From a virus (taxonomy: Duplodnaviria > Heunggongvirae > Uroviricota > Caudoviricetes), in the IMG/VR virus record IMGVR_UViG_2579778622_000006, positions 1-20,803 of that record: a stretch of DNA of 20,803 nt, one strand, 5' to 3'. Of this stretch, positions 1-15,844 are shown in pieces. Positions within the stretch are counted from its first letter, which is position 1. Each line of letters starts with the position of its first letter. The notes beneath the pieces were generated by a model, which was not told the DNA's origin, did not search any database, and saw only the letters and a list, made by a program, of their open reading frames with translations. The position numbers and the translations under genes are program-made.

Positions 1-257
1 AAAAATAAAATAAATACAACAACCTTACGGTGTATTTTGATGTCATTAATGTGAAAAAATTCAATGATATCAAATGGTTTTGTAAAAACACATGGTTGTT
101 GTATCGCGTATTTGATGGCGTAACAGAAAGTGATTTTTAACTTTACCGCTCTGTAACTACGGATTATTCCATGCTGGCACGGAGAACGGCTACGGCATGA
201 CGCCACCCAGCCTATACAGAACAGTAAAGCCGATAAATTGTTAATCACGCGCAGCAA

Positions 258-452
258 TGCGTGTGATTTTTGCACACTTCCGGTTAACGGGTACGATGTC
301 CGGTTTGTTTGTACATTTTTTGCACATGTCCGGTTCGCAGAAAGCATGTTTTTATATTTTTCATATAGTTAACTTGCAGAGAAACCGGACATGGATCCCG
401 AAAAATTTTCATAAATAGTGAAAACGCGCGAGGTCGACGCCCCGTAACGGGT
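258..452 (-). other. cos: lambda-type cos site: cosN-like 12-mer (431-442, GGGCGTCGACCT on minus strand) plus cosB-like repeat region (266-392)
   Basis: Minus-strand read CCGTTACGGGGCGTCGACCTCGCGCGTTTTCACTATTTATGAAAATTTTT is near-identical to the lambda left-end cos as I recall it (GGGCGGCGACCTCGCGGGTTTTCGCTATTTATGAAAATTTTCCGG). Followed by an AT-rich stretch and repeated ATGTCCGGTT motifs (296-305, 326-335, inverted at 383-392). Confidence 0.7.
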
Positions 453-473
453 CCACATGCCGGAAAGGACCCG

Positions 474-497
474 CAAAAAAAGCCGGATTTCTCCGGC
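474..497 (-). terminator. rho-independent terminator ending the capsid operon
   Basis: Hairpin GCCGGA-tttc-TCCGGC (482-497) with an A-run at 474-481 on plus, giving a U-tract after the stem on minus. Lies 7 nt past the stop of the 504-917 gene. Confidence 0.6.
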
Positions 498-503
498 CTT
501 GTC

Positions 504-917
504 TCAGATGGTTTTCAGTATGCGATCGATGTTGCCGTCATCGACCGGGTTTCTGCCATCGTATGCCATGCCAGCTGATACGGCTTTCGGGCTGTGCATG
601 TCCATAAAGTTTTCAAAGGCTGAAGTAAGCTGTGGTGCAACCTTCGGGCGTTCCTGCTCTATGGTCATGCTAAGGATGCTTTTAGCCGTACCAACATCGA
701 TACAAGGCACGTTAGCCATTGCACGTAACAGCGGCTGGTAGTCGTCAGATTCATGAAGCGCCATAATCGCATCAGCGCGCTGCTTGTCCTGTTCTTCCAG
801 TTTGTTTAGTCGGTGTATGGCCTCGTAGGTTGATAAACCTCTGTCAGCCATTGCCCGCGCTTCGGCTTTAAATTTACTCGCCAGCGGTAGCGTCATGATA
901 CTTTCATTCGTTGCCAT
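504..917 (-). CDS. hypothetical protein, last gene of capsid operon (occupies the position of a lambda FI-like packaging protein)
   Basis: 137-aa ORF co-oriented with the capsid genes and followed by a terminator; protein-like acidic composition. No family recognised. Confidence 0.5.
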   Translation of the reverse strand: MATNESIMTLPLASKFKAEARAMADRGLSTYEAIHRLNKLEEQDKQRADAIMALHESDDYQPLLRAMANVPCIDVGTAKSILSMTIEQERPKVAPQLTSAFENFMDMHSPKAVSAGMAYDGRNPVDDGNIDRILKTI

Positions 918-929
918 CGTTCCCCCTGC

Positions 930-1265
930 TTATCGGGCCAGCGGCTGAACGGATACGCCGGAACCCGCAAAGGCGGCGCATTTTTTCGCATCGGTGTCGA
1001 CGCTGTCAGGCCAGTTAACGGCGGCAATATTGAATATCCCCGTTTTGTAACACTGTGCTGATTTCTGCTTTGACGTGTCCACGGGGTGCGAAGTCAGATA
1101 AACAGCTTTGCCAGATTCCTGACCATCCCACGCCTTAAACTCGCCATTGTCTGCCAGCATCAGCGGGGTAAATTCCTGAATAACGCCAGCATCAGCGGCA
1201 AAATGTACCAGCGTCGTGGATACCTGCTGGCTGCCTGCAAATAACTCAATATATGGAGCGTCCAT
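930..1265 (-). CDS. head decoration protein, lambda gpD family
   Basis: 111 aa. Shares TPLMLxD, AWDG, YKTG and AFAG motifs with recalled lambda gpD. GGGGGA RBS. Confidence 0.85.
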   Translation of the reverse strand: MDAPYIELFAGSQQVSTTLVHFAADAGVIQEFTPLMLADNGEFKAWDGQESGKAVYLTSHPVDTSKQKSAQCYKTGIFNIAAVNWPDSVDTDAKKCAAFAGSGVSVQPLAR

Positions 1266-1276
1266 AGAATCCCCCG

Positions 1277-2332
1277 TTAAGCAATTTTGACGGTAACAAA
1301 TTTGCGAATATCTGCCGGTACCGGCTGCGGTGCGCTGTGCGTCTGCACGTACTCAATCGCCGGATCGCCGTCCTCAATCCAGTTTTTCGGGTAGTACATG
1401 TTTTGCGTTGCGCCCGTTCTTACCGCTTCCTGATCCATAATCGCACCATAGGCCACCAGCCCTTTATTATTGGTGTTACCCAGGACCAGCAAATCAGGCT
1501 CAAGGAAATATTTTTCGGTGCCGTCGCTGTCAGTGTATTTGCCGGAATAGACGATAAGGGCCAGATCACCAAGATAGCCTTTAAAGCTCACCACTTCGCC
1601 CAGGTTTTTACAGGCCAGCTCGGCGGCGGATTCTGATCCACGGGAAAGATCGTACAGTTCACGGAATTTTTTAAAGCTGCGTAATGTGCGCCATACCTCA
1701 CCGCCCATAATCATGACGTTGGCGGGGCAACCTGCCTGATCAGCATAAAGCTCGATGTCATAGATTGGGTCGTGCATGTCTTTATCCTGCTGGGACCATT
1801 TTTTACCACTGGCCTGCTGTATGATGCAGTTTTCCGGTATTTTCCAGTCGATTTCATAGCGTTCTATGCCTTCGCCCTCAATGATGTTTTTTCCGGTCGT
1901 TACCGCATTCACCGCCAGCCATTCCACGCGCGCCTTAATGGCGTTTATCTGGCGGCGCATGTTGCCAGTAATCAGGCGCATACGGCGGTAAGTTGGATCG
2001 TTAAGCTGTGCCGGATCTTCTCCAGCCATGCGCATGATGGTCTTTGTTGGATCGATTTCGTGCTTTGGCTTCATGTAGCCAGGTTTAATCGTGCTGGTTT
2101 CGTACCCTTTATCGCGCTGGACCTGACTACCCACCATAGGCGAACAGAAAGCCGACATCGTAACCTCTTCAATGTCCAGGGTGTCCAGCATGATGTTTTG
2201 GGTGTTGAAGGTCGCCACGTTCGGGAAAAACAGCGTGGTAAACAGCGGACTAAATTTAAATTCCGAAATATCCCCGCGATTCAGGTACGCGAAAAGCTGG
2301 TTAGTTGTAAGTGCCGTTGCTTTGCCTGTCAT
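1277..2332 (-). CDS. major capsid protein, lambda gpE family
   Basis: 351 aa. Matches recalled lambda gpE in several blocks: EFKFSPLF, PGYMKPKHE, EDPAQLNDPTYRRMR, YPKNWIEDGDPA. GGAGG RBS. Confidence 0.9.
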   Translation of the reverse strand: MTGKATALTTNQLFAYLNRGDISEFKFSPLFTTLFFPNVATFNTQNIMLDTLDIEEVTMSAFCSPMVGSQVQRDKGYETSTIKPGYMKPKHEIDPTKTIMRMAGEDPAQLNDPTYRRMRLITGNMRRQINAIKARVEWLAVNAVTTGKNIIEGEGIERYEIDWKIPENCIIQQASGKKWSQQDKDMHDPIYDIELYADQAGCPANVMIMGGEVWRTLRSFKKFRELYDLSRGSESAAELACKNLGEVVSFKGYLGDLALIVYSGKYTDSDGTEKYFLEPDLLVLGNTNNKGLVAYGAIMDQEAVRTGATQNMYYPKNWIEDGDPAIEYVQTHSAPQPVPADIRKFVTVKIA

Positions 2333-2538
2333 TATTCACCTCCGTGAACCTGATTCATACCCAGCGCCGCACGTAAATAGGTACGCACCTGCCAGCCTGT
2401 TGACGGCTCAACCATCGCCAGCGGATCAAGTCCTGCCGCAATGCCTGCTTTTACATTCTGCTGGTGGCGTTCCTTGAGCGCCTCCACGATGTCGGGGCTT
2501 ATGTAGACCGTCACCCCGCCTTTTTTCTCTTCTGCCAT
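2332..2538 (-). CDS. hypothetical small protein, first gene of capsid operon
   Basis: 68-aa ORF with AGAGGA RBS; its stop overlaps the MCP start (TAATG), suggesting translational coupling. Confidence 0.5.
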   Translation of the reverse strand: MAEEKKGGVTVYISPDIVEALKERHQQNVKAGIAAGLDPLAMVEPSTGWQVRTYLRAALGMNQVHGGE

Positions 2539-2573
2539 AGTCAGAAATTCCTCTTTGACTTAAAAAATCATAA

Positions 2574-2623
2574 CTGGATGTTCATCCAGTCCTGATTATA
2601 ATCATGATTGCATTTTGCGCAAC
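2574..2623 (-). promoter_or_regulatory. candidate sigma70 promoter of capsid operon with a 16-bp palindromic operator
   Basis: On minus strand: -35 TTGCGC (2617-2622), 16-nt spacer, -10 TATAAT (2595-2600), then perfect palindrome CTGGATG-TT-CATCCAG (2574-2589) at the predicted start region. Confidence 0.35.
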
Positions 2624-2703
2624 AATATTGAGTTACGTTGCAAATTATGAAATGATTATCCCGATCATGTGTGCCAGTGCACCATAAAAAACCTCGTATA
2701 CAA

Positions 2704-2743
2704 AAGCCCGATAAGCCCCCTGTGACCTTATCGGGCTTTTTTT
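2704..2743 (+). terminator. strong intrinsic terminator hairpin on plus strand with no upstream plus-strand CDS
   Basis: 10-bp stem CCCGATAAG(G)/CTTATCGGG with an 11-nt loop, followed by TTTTTTT (2737-2743). Confidence 0.5.
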
Positions 2744-2748
2744 AGGCG

Positions 2749-2771
2749 TAAAAAAGCCGGATTGCTCCGGC
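2749..2771 (-). terminator. rho-independent terminator after the ProQ/FinO gene
   Basis: Hairpin GCCGGA-ttgc-TCCGGC (2756-2771) with an A-run at 2749-2755 on plus (U-tract on minus). Confidence 0.55.
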
Positions 2772-2796
2772 TTCGTCTCTTCATGTGGTCAGGGTT

Positions 2797-3381
2797 TTAT
2801 GCTTTCCGTACGCCCGAGGAACTGGCATTTTTCAGAATAATATTATGCCCTGCTGGTGGCTTACCGTTATGCTTATTTTCTGCCTTCATGTTTCTGCGCT
2901 CCTGCTGTTTTTTCTTCATCTCATCCAGTCGCTTCCCCGCGTTCAACTGGTGCTCCTGTGTCACCTCCCCGCACGGATGGCCTTTCAGGTCGTAACGCAC
3001 GCCACCAGCCATCAGGGAACGGTAATATCGCACTGAACTGACATAATACGCCAGCGTTGCGCGAAGCGCTCCCTGACCTAATGAAATACCTCTCGCAGTA
3101 ATATCCTCCATCAGGTCATCAAATATGCCAACCTTAAGCGGTCTGGGCGATTCCTGGCTGAAAAGTTCAGGCCAGAGCGCGGCAAGGCGTTCAACGCGTC
3201 TGATATTTTTTTTCCGGCTCTTTTCTGATTTGCGTTTTGCTGCCGTCTTCTGTTGTGTTTTCTGCTCGCGGCTCTGCTTTTGCGCTGGTGTGGTTTTATC
3301 CGGCTGTTCAGCCTCCTGCGTCTTTTTCTGCGGTGTGCCGTATATGCCTTTTGGTTTTCGGTTAATGGTCAGCTTTGTCAT
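2797..3381 (-). CDS. ProQ/FinO-domain RNA-binding protein with lysine-rich N-terminal tail
   Basis: 194 aa from the ATG at 3381 (GGGGGAG RBS). C-terminal PLKVGIFDDL...LRATLAYYVSSVRYYRSL...RYDLKGHPCGEV matches the recalled E. coli ProQ N-terminal FinO domain (PLKIGIFQDL...RVDLDGNPCGEL). Confidence 0.75.
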   Translation of the reverse strand: MTKLTINRKPKGIYGTPQKKTQEAEQPDKTTPAQKQSREQKTQQKTAAKRKSEKSRKKNIRRVERLAALWPELFSQESPRPLKVGIFDDLMEDITARGISLGQGALRATLAYYVSSVRYYRSLMAGGVRYDLKGHPCGEVTQEHQLNAGKRLDEMKKKQQERRNMKAENKHNGKPPAGHNIILKNASSSGVRKA

Positions 3382-3460
3382 GTTCTCCCCCTTTGTGCTG
3401 TTCCACCAGCGGCATCTGCTACCCCGTGTCGCTCCCGCTGGTGTCGTGTTTCCCCGCCTG

Positions 3461-3781
3461 TTAATAACCGTCATCATTTACGTTATCAGGGTAATCACGC
3501 CATATTTCATCAGTAAGCGACGGTAGCCCCATCTGTTGTATTGTCCTGTCTGCGGCCCTTCTGACTGCGTGAACATCATAACGGTTTTCAGGTATCGGGC
3601 GCTTTGCCTTCCTGATACATTCCCTTGCTCTCATTGCCGCAAGTTCTCTGTGCCTGTCTTCCTGAAGAGTAATCATCACATCCTGCCACCTTCTGGCAGC
3701 CCGTCGCCACAGTCCCCTGCTCTCGAGTTCTTCTGCTGTCGCGTCGCTTATTGTCCGGTTCTTCGGTGTGCTGTTGTTCAT
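3461..3781 (-). CDS. PerC-family-like transcriptional regulator
   Basis: 106-aa ORF containing AEELESRGLWRRAARRW, the motif I associate with PerC/Pch-type regulators. Assigned from memory of the motif only. Confidence 0.5.
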   Translation of the reverse strand: MNNSTPKNRTISDATAEELESRGLWRRAARRWQDVMITLQEDRHRELAAMRARECIRKAKRPIPENRYDVHAVRRAADRTIQQMGLPSLTDEIWRDYPDNVNDDGY

Positions 3782-3798
3782 GTTGCTCCCCGCCTGAT

Positions 3799-4209
3799 TC
3801 AGAAGGGTATATCATCTCCGTAGGGGTCATCGCCTCCCGCTGGTGGCTCATTCCCCTGTGTGCCTGTGGTTTTGCGTCTGTTCCCGCCATGACGTGCCGC
3901 ACGCGCACTGATTACGCTGTCTGCGATAACCTGCCAGCCCTGCCGCGTTTCCCCGTTCTGTCCGGTCCACTGGCTCACCTGCATGTTACCCGCCACGCTC
4001 AGGAGTTCACCTTTGCGGTGCTTTGCCAGTGCTTCGGCCTGTCTGCCAAACGCCAGCACAGATAACCACATCGTCGCCGTTCCGTCATCTGCCTGGCTGC
4101 ACGGAAGGGGGACCGCCATACTCGCCATCGCCATTTGTGTCCCCTTGCTGGTGGTCTTTAACTGCGGGTCAGCCACCAGCCGCCCGTAAGCCGCTATCTG
4201 TGCTGTCAT
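3799..4209 (-). CDS. ssb: single-stranded DNA-binding protein (short SSB)
   Basis: 136 aa with OB-fold-like core (WLSVLAFGRQAE...KGELLSVAGNMQVSQWTGQNGETR), a Gly-rich linker and the canonical acidic C-terminal tip DDIPF. Confidence 0.85.
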   Translation of the reverse strand: MTAQIAAYGRLVADPQLKTTSKGTQMAMASMAVPLPCSQADDGTATMWLSVLAFGRQAEALAKHRKGELLSVAGNMQVSQWTGQNGETRQGWQVIADSVISARAARHGGNRRKTTGTQGNEPPAGGDDPYGDDIPF

Positions 4210-4457
4210 GCTGTATGCTCTCCGGTTTTAACGTTGATGGTTGTCACCTGTTCCGCTCCGGCAATCTCCCGTTCTGTCAGCGTGGCAAAATTTGCCGCTA
4301 CCGTTGTCATGAATGCGCTTATCAGTTCGGGATGTGCTTTCGCGTATCCTTCTCCCGCGTGGCGGTCTATCGTTCTGATTGCCACCTTTAAGGCGTGCTC
4401 TGTCATGTCTAACGCTTTATATTTTGGCGCTGTCTTATCTCTGGTTTTTCTGTTCAT
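4206..4457 (-). CDS. hypothetical protein
   Basis: ORF 4206-4487; the upstream extension translates the iteron repeats (GEWWG), so the ATG at 4457 is preferred. Overlaps the ssb start. Confidence 0.4.
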   Translation of the reverse strand: MNRKTRDKTAPKYKALDMTEHALKVAIRTIDRHAGEGYAKAHPELISAFMTTVAANFATLTEREIAGAEQVTTINVKTGEHTA

Positions 4458-4458
4458 T

Positions 4459-4670
4459 CCCCACCACTCCCCACTTTTGCTCCCCACTTTTTAAATTCCC
4501 CACTTGCTCCCCACCTCGTTTTTTGAGTGAATCTAATGCTTTGTTTTTCATTGCGTTTTTTACTCCCCACTTTTTTGGATATATACAGGTGGGAAAGTGG
4601 GGAATTATGTTTCAATTTTGTTAAATTCCCCACTCTCCCCACTTTTACTACCCACTTTTTACAGTGGGTA
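4459..4670. repeat. iteron array, putative satellite replication origin
   Basis: At least 9 copies of TCCCCAC(TTTT) in direct orientation (4459, 4468, 4481, 4496, 4508, 4563, 4626, 4635, 4649) plus inverted copies (GTGGGAAAGTGGGGAA at 4588-4604; CAGTGGGTA at 4662-4670), flanking an AT-rich core (4570-4585). Sits immediately 3' of the helicase gene. Confidence 0.6.
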
Positions 4671-6074
4671 AACATCATCCCCATCGACACAAATCACGCC
4701 GTCTTTTTCCAGCTTGGACAGCCAGCGCCGGAAGTGCTTCATCTCATACCCCAGCTTTTTCATATCGTCGCGGAGAAGGGCGATAGTGCATGGCTCTTTG
4801 TGTGCCGTCCGCGTTCTGATGCACTGCCATAGCGCGGTATGGTTTTCCGTCTTGTTGCCTGCCTCCTCGATGCGCTCCAGTTCAACGGGAGAGCGCGGCT
4901 TATCAACCACCACCAGCGACGTGATTAACTCCCCGTCAGCGTCGGTAAAAAGCTCCACCACGCGTAAATCGTAGGCGGCCTCTTTCAGTTCCTCCGCGTC
5001 CTTCATTTTGGTGCAGGATATAACCAGGGCTTTACTGTCTGCACCTTCTCGGCGAATACGGTATTCAGCGTCCAGAGATGCACGAAATGCACTGGAACCA
5101 CGCGCCCCCTTTGTTTCATCCTTGCCGGAATGGTGGACCACCAGCACCGTGGCCCCTGTGCGTCGTTTCAGGTCGTCACATCCACGGATAAACGCCCCCA
5201 TATCCCGCGCGTCATTTTCATCATTACCGCCAAAGCAACGCGCCAGCGTATCCAGAATAATCATGCGTACCGGTTTACCCGTTTCCCGTTCAACCTGGCG
5301 GGAAGCGATAACCATTTCATCAACATCAAGCGGGGCTGCCGGAAAAATCGGGCGGTTTACCAGGTACAGATTTTTCACCCGTTCATCATTAACGATTTCC
5401 CATGCCTTGATACGACGGGGGACACCAATGCCACCTTCACCGACAACATACATCACCGAACCATGCGCCACCCTGCGGCCTCCCCAGTGGCGCCCCGTGG
5501 CAACATGACACGCCCAGGAACACGCAAGGAATGATTTATAGGAACCGCTCGCACCGTATGTGCTGCACAATGAATTAGCCGGAATCACGCCCTTAACGAC
5601 ATAATCAAGCTGTGTGTCGTATCCTGCAGATCCAATGCTCATGGGTAGCGTGGTTTTTCGCTGGCTGTATTGCTCATCAGTAAGTATTTCCCCGCGCTCT
5701 GCCTGTTCGCGGATCCGTTGCAGGTAGTCGCGCCATTCCTCCCGCTTCTGGCTGTGCATTCCCTCGGGGTAATAACTCGCATCCCGTACACCTGCCGCCG
5801 CCAGTTTTTGCCCGATGGCATTAATATTTGATGGCTTGATGTGGCCTGCCTTGTACAGCCGGACACAATAGCGACCATCGTCGATAATTTTCAGGTCTGC
5901 CAGTTCGTCAAGCTGACTGTCTCCCAGCCATACTGGCGGGACGTTATCGCCAGCAAGTCGCCCGTCCTGTTCCTGCCATTGTTTTGCGTGCGCCCAGGCA
6001 TCACTACCTGCAAAAATAATGACTTCGGTCATTTTGTTGTGTGGCTGTTTTTTTAAGTTCGGTGCCAGTTTCAT
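4659..6074 (-). CDS. replication protein: RecA-fold (AAA_25/DnaB-like) helicase with C-terminal winged-helix
   Basis: 471 aa. Walker A GASGSYKS; Walker B-like ILDTLARCF; VLVVHHSGKD motif typical of RepA/DnaB-like ATPases; C-terminal basic wHTH-like segment. Confidence 0.8.
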   Translation of the reverse strand: MKLAPNLKKQPHNKMTEVIIFAGSDAWAHAKQWQEQDGRLAGDNVPPVWLGDSQLDELADLKIIDDGRYCVRLYKAGHIKPSNINAIGQKLAAAGVRDASYYPEGMHSQKREEWRDYLQRIREQAERGEILTDEQYSQRKTTLPMSIGSAGYDTQLDYVVKGVIPANSLCSTYGASGSYKSFLACSWACHVATGRHWGGRRVAHGSVMYVVGEGGIGVPRRIKAWEIVNDERVKNLYLVNRPIFPAAPLDVDEMVIASRQVERETGKPVRMIILDTLARCFGGNDENDARDMGAFIRGCDDLKRRTGATVLVVHHSGKDETKGARGSSAFRASLDAEYRIRREGADSKALVISCTKMKDAEELKEAAYDLRVVELFTDADGELITSLVVVDKPRSPVELERIEEAGNKTENHTALWQCIRTRTAHKEPCTIALLRDDMKKLGYEMKHFRRWLSKLEKDGVICVDGDDVYPL

Positions 6075-6370
6075 TTTTTATCCCTGAATCCGTTAATCAT
6101 GGTTTTCATCTTCTGAATATTGGCGCGTGCTTTCTCCCTGCTGGTTGGTTTACTGCGGGGCGCTGCCTGTACCAGAGAAAAATCACGCCGGAACTGATAA
6201 ACAGGCATCACGCAGTCATATTCGTAGCCATCACGGCGGTAAGTGATGCGCCGTTCTGCCACGCCTTTAATCGTTACCGTACCGCCGTAGTTATCACGGA
6301 AAATATCGCCGGGACGGATTTCAGGCCGAGCGGGGCCGCTGGCAGTAAAGCCAGAATTTTTCTTTTTCAT
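6071..6370 (-). CDS. hypothetical protein
   Basis: 99-aa ORF with AGGAAA RBS; its stop overlaps the helicase start (ATGA). Confidence 0.5.
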   Translation of the reverse strand: MKKKNSGFTASGPARPEIRPGDIFRDNYGGTVTIKGVAERRITYRRDGYEYDCVMPVYQFRRDFSLVQAAPRSKPTSREKARANIQKMKTMINGFRDKK

Positions 6371-6374
6371 GGTT

Positions 6375-6575
6375 TTATTTTCCTGTCAGTGATTCCGGCT
6401 TTATTCCGGCGCGAATACAGGCTTCAGAAAAAAAAGCCAGAGAACCAATAACCTCATTATTTCTAAGGCGGCATTGCGATTTCACTTTCCCTTTATCCAG
6501 GAATATCAAAACGCGCCCCGTATAATCAGATGGCACATTAAGCACTACAGGTAAGTGCGCTTCATGATTATTCAT
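6375..6575 (-). CDS. hypothetical protein
   Basis: 66 aa from the ATG at 6575, preceded by a perfect AGGAGG (6585-6590). The longer ORF start at 6644 lacks an RBS. Confidence 0.5.
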   Translation of the reverse strand: MNNHEAHLPVVLNVPSDYTGRVLIFLDKGKVKSQCRLRNNEVIGSLAFFSEACIRAGIKPESLTGK

Positions 6576-6855
6576 GGCTAACCACCTCCTGGAATTTTCT
6601 TCTGTAACGCGCCTCTGCCACATATTCAGCATAGTCCGACGCAATATTGAGAATATCGCTACCCGTTCCTGAATGTTCGGCGGTTTCCAGTAAAAAACAT
6701 GCAGCTTTTACCATGTCAGCAACACATAACAGCGCAATATCTGTATCTTCCGGTGTGCCATCAAATTCCTGTTTCAGGGCATTAAAACGATCATCACGCA
6801 TAACCCCATATTCACAATCAGCAATCAGGATGGCTTTGGCCTCATTCAGTGCCAT
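6568..6855 (-). CDS. hypothetical acidic protein, first clear gene of the leftward replication operon
   Basis: Protein-like C-terminal 95 aa of the 6568-7809 ORF; the stop overlaps the next start by 8 nt. Start is uncertain because the ATG at 6855 has no clear RBS. Confidence 0.45.
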   Translation of the reverse strand: MALNEAKAILIADCEYGVMRDDRFNALKQEFDGTPEDTDIALLCVADMVKAACFLLETAEHSGTGSDILNIASDYAEYVAEARYRRKFQEVVSHE

Positions 6856-7009
6856 ATCAGCGGTAAGCTGTGCGTAGGCCAGCAAATGCGGGATTATTGC
6901 CCCTGTATATTCCGGCTCTCTGATAATGTGGTCGGATGTGTTGATTAAATAGTTTGTGCGAAAAATGCACCTGTAACCATCAGTTAACAACGGATATACA
7001 GGGGGGACC

Positions 7010-7180
7010 ATGAATGATAAGGGGGTGCCGTTTGATGTGCTCCTGCAAAAGCTGAATGCTGCACGCGCCGCAAGGGAACGTGAGCGCATGAGTAATAACC
7101 CTGTCCCTCCTGAATTACCTCGCCCTGAACATTTTCCGCTTGAGGATTTCATCAGGGGACGAATCCGAACAAAACGATAA
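7010..7180 (+). CDS. hypothetical small protein (56 aa)
   Basis: ATG preceded by a G-run; shares the motif FPLE(D/R)FI with the 7424-7618 ORF. Ambiguous: the opposite strand is one long open frame. Confidence 0.25.
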   Translation: MNDKGVPFDVLLQKLNAARAARERERMSNNPVPPELPRPEHFPLEDFIRGRIRTKR

Positions 7181-7231
7181 CCGCCGCCGTGATATGAGGC
7201 ATCACGACGCAATGCATTACAGGTGAGCACC

Positions 7232-7348
7232 ATGAACAAATCCATATTATCCCCCACAGTTCTGGACGTAAACACAAAGCAGCGACAGATATTATTACGC
7301 GCCGTCATTAAAGCCAGACACGAGAAATTAAACCAAATCTTAAAATAA
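7232..7348 (+). CDS. hypothetical small protein (38 aa)
   Basis: AGGTGA RBS 5 nt upstream of the ATG; amphipathic, protein-like sequence. Confidence 0.3.
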   Translation: MNKSILSPTVLDVNTKQRQILLRAVIKARHEKLNQILK

Positions 7349-7423
7349 GATACGCCGCTACCGCTGTAAGTCTTCATCAGAAACAGAAAACGCCAGAGCA
7401 GATGAGCACGGAGGTAACTCTTT

Positions 7424-7618
7424 ATGAAAATAAACGAATCAGGGGAAATTACCGAAGCCAGCGTGGTACGCCAGCGGAGGCGGGAACGACGGGTACGGCC
7501 CCCCGCGCCATCCGATAATTTCCCGCTTGAGCGCTTCATCAGTGAACGGCCCCGCATACGCTGGAACGGCACAACCCCATACCCCGAGGAGAGACAGACA
7601 AAAAACAAACAGCGATGA
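7424..7618 (+). CDS. hypothetical small basic protein (64 aa)
   Basis: GGAGGT RBS 8 nt upstream of the ATG; Arg-rich; FPLERFI motif paralogous to the 7010 ORF. Confidence 0.3.
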   Translation: MKINESGEITEASVVRQRRRERRVRPPAPSDNFPLERFISERPRIRWNGTTPYPEERQTKNKQR

Positions 7619-7897
7619 TGAAATCTGGAGGCCAATACCATCACGCAGCCATCAGGAGATTGCTGACGCGCTTCCTGTTCGCTGGTGGCCTCGATGGTAA
7701 TCACGCGCGGTTGTGCAGTGCTCAGGGCGATAAAACGCCACACAAAGGCCGTTTGTGTGTGCGCCAGGCGTGGGGTATGCTGTCTTACAGCCATAAAACT
7801 ACCTCTCATAACGGTTTGTGGTTAGAAGCCCCGTTACTGCTCCAACAGTGCGGGGCTTCGTCGTTTCAATTGCTGAATTGCATGTATCAGCCCTTGT

Positions 7898-7951
7898 GGT
7901 ATTCAGATTACGTTTTGGTGAATAACATTTCAAGTCTTTTTTGGTATTCAC
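7898..7951 (+). promoter_or_regulatory. candidate operator repeats upstream of the RHH gene
   Basis: TGGTATTCA at 7898-7906 and 7942-7950, with an inverted partner GGTGAATAA at 7916-7924 (TATTCA-N12-TGAATA dyad), in the AT-rich region upstream of the 7995 start. Confidence 0.35.
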
Positions 7952-7994
7952 TTTTGTATTACACTGCATCACGTTATTAATCGGAGGTGCAAAC

Positions 7995-8300
7995 ATGTCC
8001 ACGAGTTCTGTTAACAATAAGTCACAGCAACTGAATGCCAGATTTCCACATGAAGTAGTGAGTGGCATTGAGGCATCCCTACAGCCGGGGGAAACTAAAG
8101 CGAATTTTATAGTTACGGCTGTACGCGGAGAGATCGCCCGCCGCCAGGCAGAAGGAAGAGGAGAAAATCCCCTAGTTTCTTCGCTCGATGCACTGGCGCA
8201 GGTGGAAAAAATCGGTGTCAAAGCTGCCGAGGAGATCGGGCAACTCGTCGCCGTTGCGCGTGAAGAACTCCAGCGGCGCAAAGCCAAAGAGCAGGAATAG
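7995..8300 (+). CDS. ribbon-helix-helix-like DNA-binding protein with coiled-coil C-terminus
   Basis: 101 aa from the ATG at 7995 (GGAGGTG RBS). N-terminal beta-strand/helix pattern (LNARFPHEVVSGIEAS...KANFIVTAVRGEIARR) typical of RHH/Arc-type regulators; followed by a terminator. Confidence 0.6.
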   Translation: MSTSSVNNKSQQLNARFPHEVVSGIEASLQPGETKANFIVTAVRGEIARRQAEGRGENPLVSSLDALAQVEKIGVKAAEEIGQLVAVAREELQRRKAKEQE

Positions 8301-8331
8301 CCCACCAGCAAGCCACCACACTGATCACATT

Positions 8332-8360
8332 GGCCACCGTGACAGGTGGCCTTTGTTTTG
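8332..8360 (+). terminator. rho-independent terminator after the RHH gene
   Basis: GGCCACC-gtgaca-GGTGGCC followed by TTTGTTTTG. Confidence 0.6.
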
Positions 8361-8454
8361 CCTGTTATCCGGCAATTGTGGAGCTTCGTCACACGGTTGA
8401 TATAATTCCCCTGCTCAGATTCATTTTTTGCGCGGCAGGTAAATTGTTCAGAAA

Positions 8455-8482
8455 GGCGGCTCCTTATCGGGGCCGCTTTTTT
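8455..8482. terminator. second hairpin with T-tract between the convergent RHH and alpA genes
   Basis: GCGGC-tccttatcgg-GCCGC followed by TTTTTT (8477-8482) on plus; possibly bidirectional. Confidence 0.4.
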
Positions 8483-8508
8483 CGTGTTTGTCATATCTGT
8501 GATACCCG

Positions 8509-8715
8509 TTAAGCAGCCGTTCCGCGTGCTTCCTGTTCGCGTTCTTTCTGCCAGGCCAACACATCATCCTCATACCATCCGCGACGGCGTAAACCAACGC
8601 GAAAACCCTGCGGAAATTCTCCGGCGTTGATCATGCTTTGCAGCGTGCTGTCTGCCTTGATGTGGATAATTTTTTTTACTTCCTGGCGAAAGATAATTTT
8701 TCTGATTGCTTCCAT
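8509..8715 (-). CDS. alpA: AlpA-family phage transcriptional regulator / excisionase-like HTH protein
   Basis: 68 aa; pattern IIFRQEVKK...GEFPQGFRVGLRRRGWYEDDVLAW matches the AlpA/Vis HTH_17 architecture. Confidence 0.8.
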   Translation of the reverse strand: MEAIRKIIFRQEVKKIIHIKADSTLQSMINAGEFPQGFRVGLRRRGWYEDDVLAWQKEREQEARGTAA

Positions 8716-8848
8716 CGTGATTTACCTTGTGAATCCGGTGTATTCCGGTGACAAATACGGTAAATCATCGGATATGGGTAAAAACAGTTCCCACCGTTTT
8801 TAAACGGTATACACCGTTTTTTATATTGATGATTTGAAATGGAATTAT

Positions 8849-8872
8849 AAAAAAAGCGGCATTTCTGCCGCT
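8849..8872 (-). terminator. rho-independent terminator after the orf83/int transcript
   Basis: AGCGGCA-gaaa-TGCCGCT on minus followed by TTTTTTT (plus 8849-8855 is an A-run); 10 nt past the stop at 8883. Confidence 0.55.
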
Positions 8873-8882
8873 TCCAGGATTG

Positions 8883-9134
8883 TTACCGCCATTTTTTGGG
8901 CCTGCCTCCGATCTTCATAGATGCCGGACGTACGACCTTATCAATACTTACCGCCAGATTTCTGGAAGCGCCACGGGATACCAGAAAATCTACTACCTGT
9001 TTTTTTGATGGGGCCGTCGTCCTGTCCTCCGGATCGTAGGTTGACCAAAATTCATGCTGAACCATCAGGGCCAGTTGCAGCCCGTCGCAATTGCATCTGA
9101 TATTTTTTTGCATCTTAACGGTTTCATGTTTCAC
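8883..9134 (-). CDS. hypothetical protein between int and alpA
   Basis: 83-aa ORF (GTG at 9134 or ATG at 9113) with a terminator directly downstream. Start uncertain. Confidence 0.45.
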   Translation of the reverse strand: MKHETVKMQKNIRCNCDGLQLALMVQHEFWSTYDPEDRTTAPSKKQVVDFLVSRGASRNLAVSIDKVVRPASMKIGGRPKKWR

Positions 9135-9211
9135 GGCCTTGTCGTTAAATTTGATGCAATTATACGACGGTTTTACATGGTTTTCGTAGTTTTTACTGGT
9201 TTTCTGTACAG

Positions 9212-10453
9212 CTACACGGCTCGGATACCCCTTTTACCACTGGCGAGGGTTACGCCCGTCGCCGCAGCCTCGACAAATTCGCCCCACCAGCGCATCAGCA
9301 CGATGCGTTTTTCTATGTAGTTGCTCCGGTTGTATGCCCGTCTAACTTCGTTGGTGTCGACGTGGGCAAGTGCCGCCTCTATTACGTCCGGCTCGAATCC
9401 TTCCTCGTTCGCTGCTGTGCTGAATATGGCGCGTAATCCATGAGACACCAGCACGCCAGCGAATCCCATACGCCGCAATGCTGCGTTAGCTGTCTGGCTG
9501 TTCATCGGCTGCTGTGGGTCTTTCAGACTTGGGAAAACGTAATTGCGGTGGTGGCTGATTGGTTTCATGGCCTCCAGCACCGCCATAGCCTGACCGGAAA
9601 GCGGGATAACGTGATCCCTGCGCATCTTCATGCGTCCGGCAGGTATCGTCCATTGCTTCGCGTCCAGGTTGATTTCATCCCACCGCGTTGATGACGCTTC
9701 GGCGGGACGGGTTACGGTCAGTAACTGCCATTCAATCAGTAATCTGGTCTGCCGTTCTGTTGCCGATACTGATAAAGCCTGCATAAGCTCGGGCAGCTGT
9801 TCGGGGCGGATTGTTGGCATATGTTTTTTTACAGGTGAGGGAAACGCCTTACGCACATTCATAGCCGGATTGGCATCAATCAGCCCACTGTTGGCGGCGT
9901 AATCCATTACCTCATTAACGCGCTGTAAAACCCGCTTGAGTGTTTCCAGGTTGCCGCGCTCCTTGATGGGGGTAAGCACTTCAACGAACCTTCGGGCGGT
10001 GAGGGTATCTATTGGCGTGTTGCCGATGAACGGGAATACATATTTATCCAGCGAACGCCAGATGTCTTTAATCGTGTTGGGGGCCAGATTCTGGCTGATT
10101 TTCACCTGGTACCATGCCGCCGCCACATTTTCGAACGTGTTCCCTTGTCTTCGGGCCTCTGTCTCTCTTTTTTGCCTCTCGTGGTCCTGCGGGTCAGTTC
10201 CGGCACTGATTAACGTCCTGTACTCGCTACGGCGTTTTCTGGCATCAGCCAGGGAAACATCTTCAAGCGATCCAAAACTCAGCAATATTCTTTTTTTGTC
10301 CGATGGTCGGTAGTAGGAAAATCTCCAGAGTTTTGATCCAGACGGTTTGACCAGGAGAAAAAGCCCTCCGCCGTCCTGCAGGGTGTACTCCTTTTGCGCT
10401 GGTCTGGCTGCTTTGATCTGCACTGTGGTTAATGGGTGTGTTTTTCTCGCCAT
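9212..10453 (-). CDS. int: tyrosine recombinase, P4-type integrase
   Basis: N-terminal arm-binding-like domain (LTTVQIKAARPAQKEYTLQDGGGLFLLVKPSGSKLWRFSYY), catalytic C-terminus with R...HGLR and terminal RAYNRSNY (Tyr). Adjacent to the tRNA 3' remnant. ATG at 10453 preferred over the GTG at 10471. Confidence 0.9.
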   Translation of the reverse strand: MARKTHPLTTVQIKAARPAQKEYTLQDGGGLFLLVKPSGSKLWRFSYYRPSDKKRILLSFGSLEDVSLADARKRRSEYRTLISAGTDPQDHERQKRETEARRQGNTFENVAAAWYQVKISQNLAPNTIKDIWRSLDKYVFPFIGNTPIDTLTARRFVEVLTPIKERGNLETLKRVLQRVNEVMDYAANSGLIDANPAMNVRKAFPSPVKKHMPTIRPEQLPELMQALSVSATERQTRLLIEWQLLTVTRPAEASSTRWDEINLDAKQWTIPAGRMKMRRDHVIPLSGQAMAVLEAMKPISHHRNYVFPSLKDPQQPMNSQTANAALRRMGFAGVLVSHGLRAIFSTAANEEGFEPDVIEAALAHVDTNEVRRAYNRSNYIEKRIVLMRWWGEFVEAAATGVTLASGKRGIRAV

Positions 10454-10485
10454 ATGTCTATGATTCCACACGAAAAAACAGGGTT

Positions 10486-10539
10486 TTAGTTATACGGCTT
10501 TAGTTATACGTCAGCCCGTATAACTAAACGTATAACTAA
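10486..10539. repeat. integrase arm-type site candidates: four 11-mers TTAGTTATACG (two direct, two inverted)
   Basis: Direct copies at 10486-10496 and 10500-10510; inverted copies CGTATAACTAA at 10517-10527 and 10529-10539; between the int start and the att core. Confidence 0.5.
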
Positions 10540-10590
10540 AAAATCCGGCTGATAGCTTATAAATCCGGTGATGTTCGGTGACTAAAAAAC

Positions 10591-10625
10591 ATAAAAAAAC
10601 CCGCCAATCAAGTGATTAGCGGGTT
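10591..10625 (-). terminator. hairpin with U-tract downstream of the tRNA 3' remnant (weak terminator)
   Basis: AACCCGC/GCGGGTT stem with a 14-nt loop; the A-run at 10593-10599 on plus gives a U-tract on minus. Confidence 0.35.
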
Positions 10626-10636
10626 ATCCCTGTCTT

Positions 10637-10664
10637 ATCCGGTGCTTTCCGGTGATATCCGGTG
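10637..10664. repeat. three tandem (A/T)TCCGGTG heptamer-core repeats at 10-bp period next to the att core
   Basis: ATCCGGTG (10637-10644), TTCCGGTG (10647-10654), ATCCGGTG (10657-10664). Related copies at 10564-10580 and at 8731-8750 in the alpA promoter region. Confidence 0.45.
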
Positions 10665-10671
10665 GGCGATT

Positions 10672-10720
10672 TGGTCGGCACGAGAGGATTTGAACCTCCG
10701 ACCCCCGACACCCCATGACG
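10672..10720 (-). other. tRNA-Pro (GGG-type) 3'-end fragment, 49 nt, not an intact gene; integration (att) junction
   Basis: Minus-strand read CGTCATGGGGTGTCGGGGGTCGGAGGTTCAAATCCTCTCGTGCCGACCA equals the anticodon-loop-to-CCA portion of E. coli tRNA-Pro as recalled; the sequence 5' of it cannot form the acceptor or D arm. Confidence 0.65.
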
Positions 10721-10912
10721 CCGCTTGTAAAACGCTGAGAGCCGCGCTATTGCTGGTTAGAAGTACCATTTGCATGTATAAACAAACAGTGCTTTTTCGA
10801 CATAATCTGCTCTATATACTTCAATGGCTTACATGGTGGTTTCTCCCCATGTTTGAATAGTTTCGAAGAGTTGTGTGACATAATGCCAGAATAAACTACT
10901 AGAGGCTGGATA

Positions 10913-11764
10913 ATGAAAAAAAGAACTAAAAAAGGCAGTAACATTCGTTTCCGAGAACACACTGAGGTTGAGAGGTCTTACATTAGCCTTTATAAGATCT
11001 TCTGCCGCGCTTGTGAAATTTCCGCGGCCATATCACTGAATCAAAGCGGAATTAAGACTGACGGCAGGGGAATACGGGCTGCAAATATTTTCACTCGTCA
11101 AGTGTTGACTGCGCATAGTCTTAAGAAACTACTACCAGTACTGCGAAACGGAGTTAATCCCGATGATACAGTATGGGATGTAACCACTATCGCACTTGTG
11201 TCCAGAAGTGTGATGGAAAATTTTCAGGCGCTTTTTTATTACGGAACGGAAACGGTCTCGGAAGCGGAGGCTGACTTTCGTTTTCGAATTTTCCAGAAAG
11301 ACAGAAATGTTAAATGGCGTGATATCAGACTGAAGGCTGGTGAATCTGAAGAATCACTGGAGGAGTTTTTCACCGGCATACCAAAGCAGCAGGAGGAGAT
11401 AGTGAACCATGAATTCTATAGTTCACTATCTAAAGAACAAAAGAATAGTCTCAAAAACAGGGCCGAAATGTATTATACCAAAGCTGAGTTCGAAGCTCGC
11501 TGCCCGCGGTTAGCCGACATTGCACTACATCACCAGTTACTATCAAATCTGGCTCATCCATTGCCACTGGCTATCCACAGGATTGATGAATTTAGCGGTC
11601 ATGGTGCACCCAGTGAAGCTGACATCTGCTTAGTCATAATATCCCTGAAGGTTGCTACAGACTGCCTAATTGCGTCAGTTGAGGGGATGGGCGAAAAATT
11701 TGCCGATAGTATCGGTATACATTATCGGTCAATGATTGAAGAACTCTCCAATTACTCACTTTGA
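10913..11764 (+). CDS. hypothetical protein, AT-rich cargo gene (candidate accessory or defence function)
   Basis: 283-aa ORF, the only plus-strand gene between the att remnant and the lambdoid int; visibly lower GC than its flanks; convergent terminator hairpin downstream; R-x6-H motif (RLADIALH) in the C-terminal third. Confidence 0.6.
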   Translation: MKKRTKKGSNIRFREHTEVERSYISLYKIFCRACEISAAISLNQSGIKTDGRGIRAANIFTRQVLTAHSLKKLLPVLRNGVNPDDTVWDVTTIALVSRSVMENFQALFYYGTETVSEAEADFRFRIFQKDRNVKWRDIRLKAGESEESLEEFFTGIPKQQEEIVNHEFYSSLSKEQKNSLKNRAEMYYTKAEFEARCPRLADIALHHQLLSNLAHPLPLAIHRIDEFSGHGAPSEADICLVIISLKVATDCLIASVEGMGEKFADSIGIHYRSMIEELSNYSL

Positions 11765-11792
11765 AATTAATACATTCCTCAACTTCCAACAC

Positions 11793-11821
11793 AGAGCAAC
11801 CCGTCCAATTTGGTTTGCTCT
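11793..11821. terminator. hairpin between the convergent 283-aa gene and int
   Basis: AGAGCAA...TTGCTCT stem (with extension) followed by GCTTTATAC. Confidence 0.4.
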
Positions 11822-11857
11822 GCTTTATACTAAAGCAATAAAGGGAGTAATTTATTA

Positions 11858-13036: not shown

Positions 13037-13038
13037 GG

Positions 13039-15828: not shown

Positions 15829-15844
15829 AACGAAATTAAAACCT

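Follow-up and report, generated by a model that had tools for sequence, protein, structure and literature searches.

Does a phage satellite carry its own single-stranded DNA-binding protein (SSB), a PerC-like regulator and a ProQ/FinO-domain protein as one functional set, or do these neighboring genes serve different ends? The question is raised by a 20,803-nucleotide stretch of viral DNA (the window), in which the three genes lie downstream of a helicase gene and a putative replication origin. The first-pass annotation had read them as co-operonic with a satellite's replication module; it had proposed that the SSB supports island replication or interferes with helper or host proteins, and that the regulator, as a member of a family of virulence-operon activators, couples host regulation to satellite induction. 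The coordinates of all features are given in Table 1.

Table 1. Coordinates and supporting matches of the island's features in the window
Feature	Position	Strand	Details
Packaging module	504-2538	-	hyp68, lambda-E-like MCP, gpD-like decoration protein, hyp137 (Nu3/scaffold-like)
Tandem intrinsic terminators T1 + T2	2702-2774	-	just past the ProQ/FinO stop codon, at the operon end
ProQ/FinO-domain protein, 194 aa (RefSeq start)	2797-3381	-	PF04352, E 2.1e-26, 92.5 bits (cut-off 27)
Stem-loop in the PerC-ProQ/FinO spacer	3404-3443	-	9-bp stem; -21 kcal/mol; z = -2.79
PerC-family protein, 106 aa	3461-3781	-	PF06069, E 9.5e-27, 93.5 bits (cut-off 22.6)
Compact SSB, 136 aa	3799-4209	-	PF00436, E 6.7e-16, 58.7 bits (cut-off 26)
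hyp83, 83 aa	4206-4457	-	ATGA overlap with the SSB start
Putative replication origin, iteron cluster	4456-4660	-	TCCCCAC(T) units in both orientations
RepA-family replicative helicase, 471 aa	4659-6074	-	PF13481 (AAA_25), E 8.5e-44; phrog_2850, E 9e-249
DUF4222 protein, RgdR (ECs1581/c1493) ortholog	6071-6370	-	PF13973, E 1.7e-25; 74% identical to c1493
68-aa HTH protein	8509-8715		PF05930, 17.6 bits (cut-off 21); 28% identical to the CFT073 HTH protein
Integrase (int)	9212-10471		one end of the island

Judged by its gene order and by its identities to EcCICFT073, the segment 1-10720 of the window belongs to the EcCICFT073 type of phage-inducible chromosomal islands (PICIs) and lies at tRNA-Pro, which agrees with the earlier reading of the element as a phage satellite. 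EcCICFT073 is a well-studied E. coli phage satellite and the prototype of the Gram-negative PICIs. In E. coli B771, the tRNA-Pro between yejM and yejO holds an island of ~11.5 kb that is 100% identical to the window's PICI, and its RefSeq annotation agrees with our gene calls for the SSB, PerC and ProQ/FinO. Of the characteristics listed for PICIs by Fillol-Salom 2018, several are present: a length of ~11.5 kb (expected ~10-15 kb), an att site at tRNA-Pro, int at one end, and a replication protein followed by an iteron origin, here a RepA-family helicase and a TCCCCAC cluster. No lysis or tail genes are annotated in the island, its B771 counterpart included. In the place of the AlpA-family regulator expected after the integrase, the island has the 68-aa HTH protein, whose PF05930 score of 17.6 bits is below the cut-off of 21. 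A packaging-redirection gene (rpp or terS) is missing. RppA is reduced to a 22-aa remnant at 146-211, and no TerS was found in the window or in the B771 island, while close relatives of the island carry one. Lacking rppA, the island may be transfer-defective. [quoted passage not shown]

Two characterized islands frame the comparison, EcCICFT073 and EcCIEDL933, for both of which others have shown helper-dependent induction, replication and transfer. EcCICFT073 is located between roxA and phoQ in E. coli CFT073 (Fillol-Salom 2018, 2019), whereas the window's island is located at tRNA-Pro. They have in common the order int, small HTH regulator, YlcI/YnfO, Icd-like, DUF4222/RgdR, replication protein, hypothetical gene, SSB, PerC, hyp68, E-like MCP, D-like decoration protein, hyp137 and a 93-aa gene, the last of which falls just outside the window and is found in the B771 island. 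Identities are highest for the MCP (96%), decoration protein (95%), hyp68 (94%) and hyp137 (91%), and lower for the SSB (82%), RgdR (74%) and hyp83 (71%). In contrast, the integrases are 24% identical, and the EcCICFT073 replication protein is of the primase family; the window's RepA-type helicase shares only its own N-terminal 134 aa with it (61% identity). The EcCICFT073 PerC is 82 aa long and 45% identical to the window's 106-aa protein, ProQ/FinO is an extra gene in the window, and rppA (c1503) has been deleted from the window's island except for the remnant. We regard the element, on these identities, as a new mosaic version of a known PICI type and an ordinary relative of EcCICFT073. The second comparison is with an island at roxA-phoQ in O157:H7 strain F8952, whose gene layout is as described for EcCIEDL933 (O-island 51/CP-933C/Sp7), the prototype cf-PICI. 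It carries hyp83-SSB-PerC directly after its replication protein, a DUF927 primase-helicase, together with an HK97-type MCP, protease, portal, connectors, HNH, TerS and TerL. Its SSB and its hyp83 are each 82% identical to the window's, its PerC is 48% identical, and it has no ProQ/FinO gene.

The genes in question are all located on the minus strand, in the order RepA-type helicase, iteron region, hyp83, SSB, PerC and ProQ/FinO, with the gene for the RgdR ortholog directly preceding, and overlapping, that of the helicase. The 471-aa protein, named 'helicase RepA family protein' in RefSeq, contains no recognizable full primase domain and is, by its profile matches, the island's replication protein. 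Directly after its gene, where other PICIs have their origin, the iteron region contains repeat families D1-D4 and inverted pairs I1-I7; the putative origin function is assigned solely from this position and repeat structure. The hyp83 stop codon and the SSB start codon overlap as ATGA, and the two genes are apparently translationally coupled. The SSB-PerC gap is 17 nt long with the Shine-Dalgarno sequence GGGGAG, and the PerC-ProQ/FinO gap is 79 nt long with GGGGGAG. The stem-loop within the latter gap lacks a U tract and is therefore not a terminator.

A pattern scan listed no minus-strand terminators between 7739 and 2591, but the same scan missed both terminators located after ProQ/FinO, and by itself it is weak evidence. 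T1 (2774-2753) has a U6 tract and T2 spans 2740-2702; their region folds with -41.9 kcal/mol (z = -4.65), and none of 200 shuffled sequences was as stable. An A run and a U run flank T2, which may therefore act in both directions. TUM9803, which lacks ProQ/FinO, has an identical T2 sequence ahead of its capsid module, indicating that T2 belongs to the capsid-side junction and not to a ProQ/FinO cassette; beyond this case, the exact matching used to search relatives for the terminators was too strict to be informative. Because the genes overlap or are separated by short gaps with Shine-Dalgarno sequences, and because the double terminator occurs only after ProQ/FinO, the set forms one operon that T1 and T2 end. 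The co-operonic, same-strand arrangement downstream of helicase and origin had thus been correctly read, although the ProQ/FinO gene lies beyond the interval 3461-4209 that the first-pass annotation had delimited. The packaging module (PF03864, E 2.4e-50; PF02924, E 1.7e-17), in which hyp137 aligns with the C-terminal portion of the head maturation protease family phrog_53, is by inference a separate transcription unit. A sigma-70-like promoter candidate before it (TTGCGC, 16 nt, TATAAT; 2622-2595, minus strand) matches the -35 element at only three of six positions and was not called by the scan; we rejected it.

We now turn to the SSB itself. Besides its Pfam match, it scores above the TIGR00621 cut-off (57.4 versus 53.95 bits) and matches 27 solved SSB structures in the PDB (best E 1.4e-13), and its C-terminus reads DDPYGDDIPF, confirming both the family and the DDIPF tip that had been noticed earlier. 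Its OB fold takes up ~105 residues, and a linker of ~25 connects the fold to the acidic DDIPF tip. The E. coli chromosomal SSB is longer, at 178 aa with a linker of ~60 residues; what the two proteins share is the OB fold, the C-terminal DDIPF and, as far as the alignment shows, three of the four aromatics that stack on ssDNA. In that alignment they are 27% identical, W48, F53 and W81 of the window SSB correspond to W54, F60 and W88, W40 has no counterpart, and Leu49 aligns with His55. In E. coli SSB, W40, W54, F60 and W88 stack on ssDNA, and His55 is important for the tetramer.

The tails of 80 relatives show how far the tip is maintained: 63 end in (D/N/G)IPF, 14 in DDISF and one in DNVPF, one is truncated, and one has no recognizable MTAQ start. 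The Pro-to-Ser change in DDISF is that of E. coli ssb-113, an allele with weakened partner binding. Its presence in 14 of the 80 relatives suggests that tip-mediated recruitment may not be essential. SSB identity is 82-94% among the PICIs compared and 70-99% among the relatives, whereas none of the SSBs in 50,697 phage records reaches 34% identity to the window SSB. The combination of 70-99% identity within PICIs with 27% to the host SSB and <34% to phage SSBs points to a dedicated PICI lineage. The homology search that the first-pass annotation had suggested for the SSB consequently places it in a PICI-restricted lineage, remote from host and phage SSBs.

How widely do these genes travel together? 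DNA matching hyp83 and the SSB is present in 1747 of 5426 complete E. coli genomes, about a third. In 74 of 77 IMG/VR loci hyp83 lies immediately upstream of the SSB, and 79 of 79 retain the ATGA overlap. The replication protein directly before the pair varies across the IMG/VR loci, being of the primase family in 46, a RepA helicase in 23 and a DUF927 protein in five, and the pair occurs alongside three packaging types (lambda E/D-like, HK97 cf-PICI and a ClpP-capsid fusion). The SSB is present whether or not the replication protein includes a primase, so a specific need for 'primase recruitment' is not indicated. A helicase-anchored scan of one genome per species gave 80 Enterobacterales loci that share the helicase domain, mostly longer ORFs adjoining an integrase, and none has hyp83 or this SSB downstream. 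The pair is consequently no general companion of the helicase family, and those loci are uninformative for co-occurrence.

Downstream of the pair, the genes are far less constant. A PerC gene lies 3′ of the SSB in 51 of the 77 IMG/VR loci; ProQ/FinO is present in two of the 77 and, at coverage of at least 80%, in 19 of the 5426 E. coli genomes. Across these loci, hyp83 and the SSB are core, PerC is common but optional, and ProQ/FinO is rare. Megablast similarity to relatives without PerC stops inside the region that codes for the SSB linker, at ~3896-3905. Of the proposal that SSB, PerC and ProQ/FinO form one set, the shared operon stands and the single functional unit does not. The hyp83-SSB-PerC arrangement is standard in E. 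coli PICIs and not particular to this island, in which only ProQ/FinO is an uncommon extra. The main value of the analysis is to correct expectations, since E. coli PICIs routinely carry a PerC-family gene behind an SSB gene. The hyp83-SSB pair spans unrelated replication and packaging modules in about a third of the genomes, yet it is undiscussed in the satellite literature that we searched, which makes no mention of an SSB in Gram-negative PICIs.

From the observed gene identities, order, coupling, operon end, distribution and modularity we infer a division of labor, which we hold with moderate confidence: hyp83 and a PICI-specific SSB form a conserved unit behind the replication protein and origin, followed by a variable regulator slot, and the SSB would serve island replication. 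The SSB is then probably a core replication accessory, and PerC and ProQ/FinO are probably swappable regulatory cargo. After helper induction, the helicase would open the origin and the SSB would coat the island's DNA where it is bared as single strands. Its tip, identical to the last five residues of the host SSB, could recruit the chi subunit of Pol III, the DnaG primase and PriA, with hyp83 probably acting as the partner or loader of the SSB. PerC and ProQ/FinO would be interchangeable cargo transcribed at the operon's end, the former a small helical, ANR-like regulator that may act on host (or island) transcription through protein contacts instead of a classical DNA-binding domain, and the latter an RNA chaperone expected to bind terminator-type hairpins.

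The PerC assignment withstands a database search. The PF06069 match spans profile positions 2-90 of 90, and R26, R27, A28 and W32, invariant in a 56-sequence family alignment, are all present, as are D13, A16, L19, E20, G23, R31, C55 and G85 from its invariant or near-invariant columns. An AF2 model has four helices (pLDDT 80). EPEC PerC and EHEC PchA/B/C, which activate ler/LEE1, belong to the same Pfam family. The window's allele is distinct from the PchE-type allele usual at this position, and is found in 52 of the 5426 E. coli genomes and in two of the 52 PerC-bearing IMG/VR loci, both of which also carry ProQ/FinO. It is 34-48% identical to other alleles at the position, except for the allele of strain 98232 (87%), and mostly <46% identical to plasmid-borne family members. 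An exhaustive search returned 123 representative clusters of homologs, versus eight matches from a word-indexed search; all clusters are named simply 'PerC family transcriptional regulator', which does not place the allele among PchA-E/PerC. A further PerC-domain protein is encoded at 17997-18491 (PF06069, 7.7e-9), after the replication gene of an unrelated prophage that neighbors the island in the window.

What such genes do on PICIs has been studied elsewhere. The presence of PerC on Gram-negative PICIs is already published (PMC6092414), and PerC and ProQ appear among PICI accessory genes in PMC13612085. LEE1 fusions were unaffected by the PerC-like genes of EcCIEDL933 and EcCICFT073 (Porter 2005, as cited in PMC11773190). 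PchE, encoded by pchE (ECs1588) and assigned to EcCIEDL933/O-island 51 in PMC1890555, is a repressor of csgD/curli and of adhesion that is expressed at a lower level once SOS is induced (PMC6265319). Pick et al. 2025 (PMC11773190) describe EcCIMP1_025, a PerC-family gene of the PICI EcCIMP1; ~40% identical to the CFT073 and EDL933 PICI alleles, it silences a LEE1-lux fusion in Citrobacter rodentium. The PICI-borne homologs tested so far are thus not LEE activators, having either no effect on LEE1 or a repressive one, and the expectation that PerC proteins are usually virulence-operon activators fails for them. The window's protein is only 45-48% identical to the EcCICFT073 and EcCIEDL933 alleles, and consequently their functions are not transferable to it.

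These studies bear on a different reading, in which PerC and ProQ/FinO are lysogeny-expressed 'morons' that constitutively rewire host transcription and RNA stability (curli, flagella, type III secretion, T3S) outside the satellite cycle, the SSB being merely adjacent. Transcripts of pchE occur in O157:H7 without induction, and curli increases slightly when the gene is deleted (PMC6265319), PchE is also reported to control flagella (PMC7369912), EcCIMP1_025 silences LEE1, and RgdR, from the same islands, regulates T3S and motility (PMC3378721). Expression of pchE without induction, and its decrease on SOS, argue against a simple co-regulation with replication, at least for the PerC gene. However, the 17-nt gap between SSB and PerC contains no recognizable promoter, strong PchE effects appear mainly under over-expression from a plasmid (PMC6265319), the window's allele is distant from both tested proteins, and the hosts listed for the B771-type island are human fecal and poultry-associated isolates. 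We consider this reading unlikely.

Alternatively, PerC, alone or together with ProQ/FinO, might be a late regulator of the island itself that activates or stabilizes the capsid operon, which starts ~260 nt downstream, instead of acting on host genes. Wherever it occurs, PerC is positioned after the SSB and before the packaging module; the prophage protein at 17997-18491 likewise follows a replication gene; the PHROG families matched by PerC are labeled transcriptional activators; and the terminators set the capsid operon apart from the operon upstream. Yet of 40 islands that share the lambda-E-type capsid module, 11 have no PerC. In E2, both PerC and ProQ/FinO are missing and the capsid genes come straight after the SSB. 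PerC is also absent from all 14 loci without a detected capsid type or TerS, of which the two looked at have a ClpP-capsid fusion. Capsid modules that are ~95% identical adjoin PerC alleles that are 45% identical, unlike a cognate activator-promoter pair, and we judge this role improbable. The idea that PerC tracks the presence of a packaging module was dropped, since Pfam revealed in the capsid-negative loci L123 and L161 another kind of packaging module, the third, in which a ClpP-capsid fusion is accompanied by DUF1441 and a GpA nuclease.

The ProQ/FinO gene is the uncommon part of the operon, and its family assignment stands, with PDB matches to ProQ (5nb9, 4e-18) and FinO (1dvo, 2e-15) in addition to its Pfam match. 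The protein's FinO domain, at ~63-164, is preceded by a tail rich in Lys and Gln and followed by a basic one. Only the first 133 residues of E. coli ProQ are matched, and the C-terminal Tudor-like domain of ProQ is absent; the Lys/Gln-rich N-terminal extension also occurs in FinO of F-like plasmids. Scores of 76.4 bits for ProQ (cut-off 127) and 75.6 bits for FinO (cut-off 136) are below both NCBIfam equivalog cut-offs, pointing to a separate island-borne branch. In every case examined the gene adjoins the window-type PerC allele, although in SA53-3 and 24AR0180 the order of the two genes is swapped. ProQ/FinO-domain RNA chaperones are thus satellite cargo, found beside an unusual PerC allele. 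Rfam searches of the island, in gathering and E-value modes, found no RNA family that could be a target. The sole match, to BTnc005 at the att junction (26.7 bits versus a gathering threshold of 174.8), is due to chance.

The preferred reading has a bolder version, in which hyp83-SSB is a replisome-hijacking device and the rare PerC and ProQ/FinO genes are a linked two-gene cassette; we consider this version improbable. On it, the PICI-confined pair would draw chi, DnaG and PriA to the satellite origin through a minimal SSB whose tip matches that of the host, with hyp83 as the loader. The cassette would add transcriptional and post-transcriptional control of curli, flagella and T3S and, through these surface structures, would also control phage adsorption or colonization. 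Neither the hyp83-SSB observation nor the ProQ/FinO observation overturns the current view of satellites.

A role of the SSB as weapon or shield, titrating host SSB partners away from the helper, or decoying or blocking defenses that sense phage SSBs or single-stranded DNA, is the kind of function that a host-identical DDIPF tip on a very divergent OB fold, a satellite-restricted lineage and the frequent interference and defense cargo of satellites (PMC10085698) might suggest, but it is very improbable, as EcCIEDL933 does not lower helper titers or plating while the SSB of the O157:H7 island of the same layout is 82% identical to the window's, RppA-TerS accounts for the interference by EcCICFT073, PADLOC returned no defense-system matches for the SSB, PerC, ProQ/FinO, hyp83, helicase or RgdR, and the SSB is fixed in position beside the origin, away from known cargo hot spots. 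The earlier suggestion of helper interference via the SSB therefore finds no support.

For the favored role of the SSB in island replication, there is one further reservation. High conservation at the module boundary could in part reflect a recombination anchor, as opposed to selection on the SSB as a protein.

The annotation of the SSB, PerC-like and ProQ/FinO genes is right, and the biology attached to it by the first-pass annotation is mostly either already known or contradicted for the nearest tested relatives. As claimed, the three genes follow the helicase gene and the ori on one strand; that strand is the minus strand, and the ProQ/FinO gene lies outside the interval of 3461-4209 assigned to the operon. 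The stop of hyp83, encoding an 83-aa hypothetical protein, overlaps the SSB start as ATGA, the spacers are 17 nt (SSB to PerC) and 79 nt (PerC to ProQ), and each gene is preceded by a Shine-Dalgarno sequence, the SSB, PerC and ProQ spacing being read from the sequence. A terminator scan listed no minus-strand terminators between 7739 and 2591, which is weak evidence alone because the scan also missed both terminators after ProQ. When folded, these form two strong tandem hairpins 3′ of the ProQ stop (z = -4.65), and the PerC–ProQ spacer forms a stem that has no U tract. The spacing, the Shine-Dalgarno sequences and a double terminator found only after ProQ bear out the observation at the sequence level, and reading the genes from helicase to ProQ as one operon appears reasonable.

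Coordinates of the replication and SSB-PerC-ProQ genes of the island
Feature	Position in the window	Strand	Details
ProQ/FinO	2797-3381	minus	PF04352 E 2.1e-26; beyond 3461-4209
PerC-like	3461-3781	minus	106 aa; PF06069 93.5 bits versus cut-off 22.6; complete gene
SSB	3799-4209	minus	136 aa; PF00436 E 6.7e-16; complete gene
hyp83	4206-4457	minus	83-aa gene; directly upstream of SSB
TCCCCAC iteron cluster	about 4456-4660	minus	upstream of hyp83
RepA-family helicase	4659-6074	minus	upstream of SSB

By homology, the SSB reading frame is a bona fide SSB, compact and with the DDIPF tip that had been described: besides PF00436, it matches TIGR00621 at 57.4 bits (curated cut-off 53.95) and 27 solved SSB structures, and it ends in GDDIPF. 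A homology search placed it in what its identities indicate is a lineage of its own, since its identity is 27% to E. coli SSB and below 34% to any SSB in 50,697 phage records, with PICI SSBs being 70-99% identical among themselves. In the alignment with E. coli SSB, three of four stacking aromatics align and Leu replaces His55; the disordered linker is only ~25 residues long. The tip in 80 IMG/VR relatives reads DDIPF (32), DNIPF (20), DDISF (14), DGIPF (11) or DNVPF (1), with one further SSB truncated and one lacking a recognisable start. DDISF is a recurrent natural variant, present in these 14 of 80 loci and at 9001-9411 of comparison locus L085 (O157:H7 DEC4E); the E. coli ssb-113 allele has the same Pro-to-Ser change, which weakens partner binding.

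In E. coli SSB, chi, DnaG, PriA, RecQ and other partners dock at the tip. The island's SSB is most economically read as a replication accessory: the island helicase would open the ori, and the SSB would connect the opened ori to host enzymes. The proposal that the SSB interferes with helper phages is without support, as EcCIEDL933, the prototype cf-PICI, has no effect on its helpers, an O157:H7 island with the EcCIEDL933 gene layout carries an SSB 82% identical to that of the window, and the interference caused by EcCICFT073 is due to RppA. The satellite literature searched makes no mention of this SSB. Megablast similarity to PerC-less relatives ends at about 3896-3905, within the region coding for the SSB linker, and the SSB itself is a mosaic, with an E2/SA53-3-like OB fold and a CFT073/TUM9803-like tail, so that the conserved SSB gene seems to be a recombination joint between modules.

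DNA encoding hyp83 and SSB is present in 1747 of 5426 complete E. coli genomes. Annotated examples place the unit behind three unrelated replication proteins, namely a RepA helicase (B771, E2, SA53-3, TUM9803 and DEC4E), a DUF927 primase-helicase (F8952 and 24AR0180) and a primase-family protein (CFT073 and ECCNB12-2), and in front of differing packaging modules. From IMG/VR, we sampled 80 contigs with the SSBs closest to that of the window, 77 of which extend at least 1.5 kb downstream of SSB; counts are of raw loci, uncorrected for duplicates and kinship. Across these 77 loci, hyp83 is directly upstream of SSB in 74, a PerC-family gene is directly downstream in 51 and a ProQ/FinO gene is present in 2. 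Their replication proteins are primase-family (46), RepA (23) or DUF927 (5), and their packaging genes are lambda-E-like (40), HK97 cf-PICI (21), TerS only (2) or neither detected (14); both examined loci of these 14 have a ClpP-capsid fusion module. The ATGA overlap is preserved in 79 of 79 IMG/VR relatives. The pattern is a hyp83-SSB core anchored at the ori end of the replication module, often but not always accompanied by PerC and rarely by ProQ/FinO; SSB followed by PerC is the standard layout of EcCICFT073-type PICIs. The function of the very widespread, PICI-restricted hyp83-SSB pair is the one question of real interest. A third PICI packaging type follows hyp83-SSB at comparison loci L123 (9054-13484) and L161 (4780-8704), comprising a 630-aa ClpP-protease/capsid fusion, a DUF1441 protein and a protein with a GpA-nuclease domain; neither locus has a PerC gene.

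The PerC-like assignment was upheld by the database search: the protein matches the whole PF06069 profile and keeps all invariant and near-invariant columns in an alignment of 56 family members. The literature already describes PerC homologues on PICIs of E. coli (PMC6092414). By location, the PerC gene after SSB in the O157:H7 cf-PICI is PchE (ECs1588), because PchE was placed in OI-51/Sp7 (PMC1890555) and F8952 has an island of like layout there. As PMC11773190 cites Porter 2005, neither PchE nor the CFT073 homologue affected LEE1 fusions. PchE represses csgD/curli and adhesion, and its expression, present without induction, drops upon SOS induction (PMC6265319); EcCIMP1_025, the PerC-family gene of PICI EcCIMP1, silences LEE1 (PMC11773190). 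The expected role of PerC proteins as activators of virulence operons is thus contradicted for the nearest tested relatives. An AF2 model of the window protein has four helices (pLDDT 80) and matches generic TPR-like hairpins in solved structures, and an ANR-family regulator is among its best viral-model matches, at non-significant E-values, a likeness similarly remarked upon in PMC11773190. These are hints, offered as a lead, that PerC may act through protein contacts.

A PerC gene follows SSB in 52 IMG/VR loci, 50 of them with the PchE-type allele; the 106-aa allele of the window occupies the other two, both also with ProQ/FinO, and is found in 52 of 5426 complete E. coli genomes. In the three places examined, it adjoins an identical ProQ/FinO gene (B771, ECCNB12-2) or a ProQ/FinO fragment (98232). 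A 92%-identical allele, at 7749-8635 of comparison locus L087 (E. coli 98232), occurs in 42 genomes; in 98232, one of the 42, an IS-flanked cassette fragment (partial SSB, PerC, partial ProQ/FinO) sits within a different genomic island.

The ProQ/FinO protein matches solved structures of ProQ (4e-18) and FinO (2e-15) and scores under the equivalog cut-offs of both. Such genes are very rare in isolated phages (5 records); 19 of the 5426 genomes carry the island's allele at ≥80% coverage, and 1076 carry related chromosomal genes, with examples both on PICIs and on other islands. Every examined ProQ-bearing PICI has a PerC gene beside ProQ, in either order, an adjacency that is not significant because the PerC background is 66%. 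The cassette of 106-aa PerC allele and ProQ/FinO is the island's only uncommon feature. No RNA families were detected in the island. Because ProQ-type proteins bind terminator hairpins, the operon's double terminator and the PerC–ProQ spacer hairpin are candidate ligands.

The island (window 1-10720) shows 100% identity to an ~11.5 kb island of E. coli B771, inserted at tRNA-Pro between yejM and yejO. Gene order and similarity relate it to EcCICFT073, the prototype Gram-negative PICI. Identities between the two are 96% for the lambda-E-like capsid protein, 95% for the gpD-like decoration protein, 94% and 91% for the hypothetical proteins hyp68 and hyp137, 82% for SSB, 74% for the DUF4222 protein (RgdR) and 71% for hyp83, whereas PerC, at 45%, is a different allele. 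The island also differs in its integrase and att site, in having a RepA helicase instead of a primase-family protein, in its extra ProQ/FinO gene and in the loss of rppA; among the EcCICFT073-type PICIs it is a new mosaic. RppA (c1503, 144 residues) is needed by EcCICFT073 to steer TerS of the helper towards the EcCICFT073 cos site; the island retains a 22-aa remnant, 73% identical (window 146-211, minus strand). Because rppA is lost and a TerS gene is also absent from the island, it may be transfer-defective and incapable of having itself packaged.

Over its N-terminal 134 aa (window 5682-6074, minus), the helicase shares 61% identity with the N-terminal end of the primase-family protein of EcCICFT073; this domain, common to two otherwise different proteins, adjoins the conserved DUF4222 gene (window 6071-6370, minus), whose product is the orthologue of RgdR (ECs1581/c1493). 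RgdR regulates type III secretion and motility, with residue 20 functionally critical (PMC3378721); residues 20-22 of the island orthologue are PGD, not RGD. A 413-aa open frame (window 6568-7809, minus) runs across an Icd-like pseudogene and ~700 nt that are not protein-like, and the stretch from about 6575 to 7624 carries no annotation in RefSeq. Two small paralogous plus-strand ORFs (7010-7180 and 7424-7618) have the common motif ...FPLE(D/R)FI...R(I/P)R, which indicates an internal direct repeat.

Window 10670-20803 belongs to another, unrelated temperate prophage, which shares the tRNA-Pro site in tandem with the island. It encodes a lambda-type integrase, an S24 repressor, a CII-like protein, an O-like replication protein, Dam and KilA-N, and has a DUF4222-like stretch at 16911-17057. 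Right after its replication gene lies a 164-aa PerC-domain protein (17997-18491), so the PerC family looks native to the early regions of phages and satellites.
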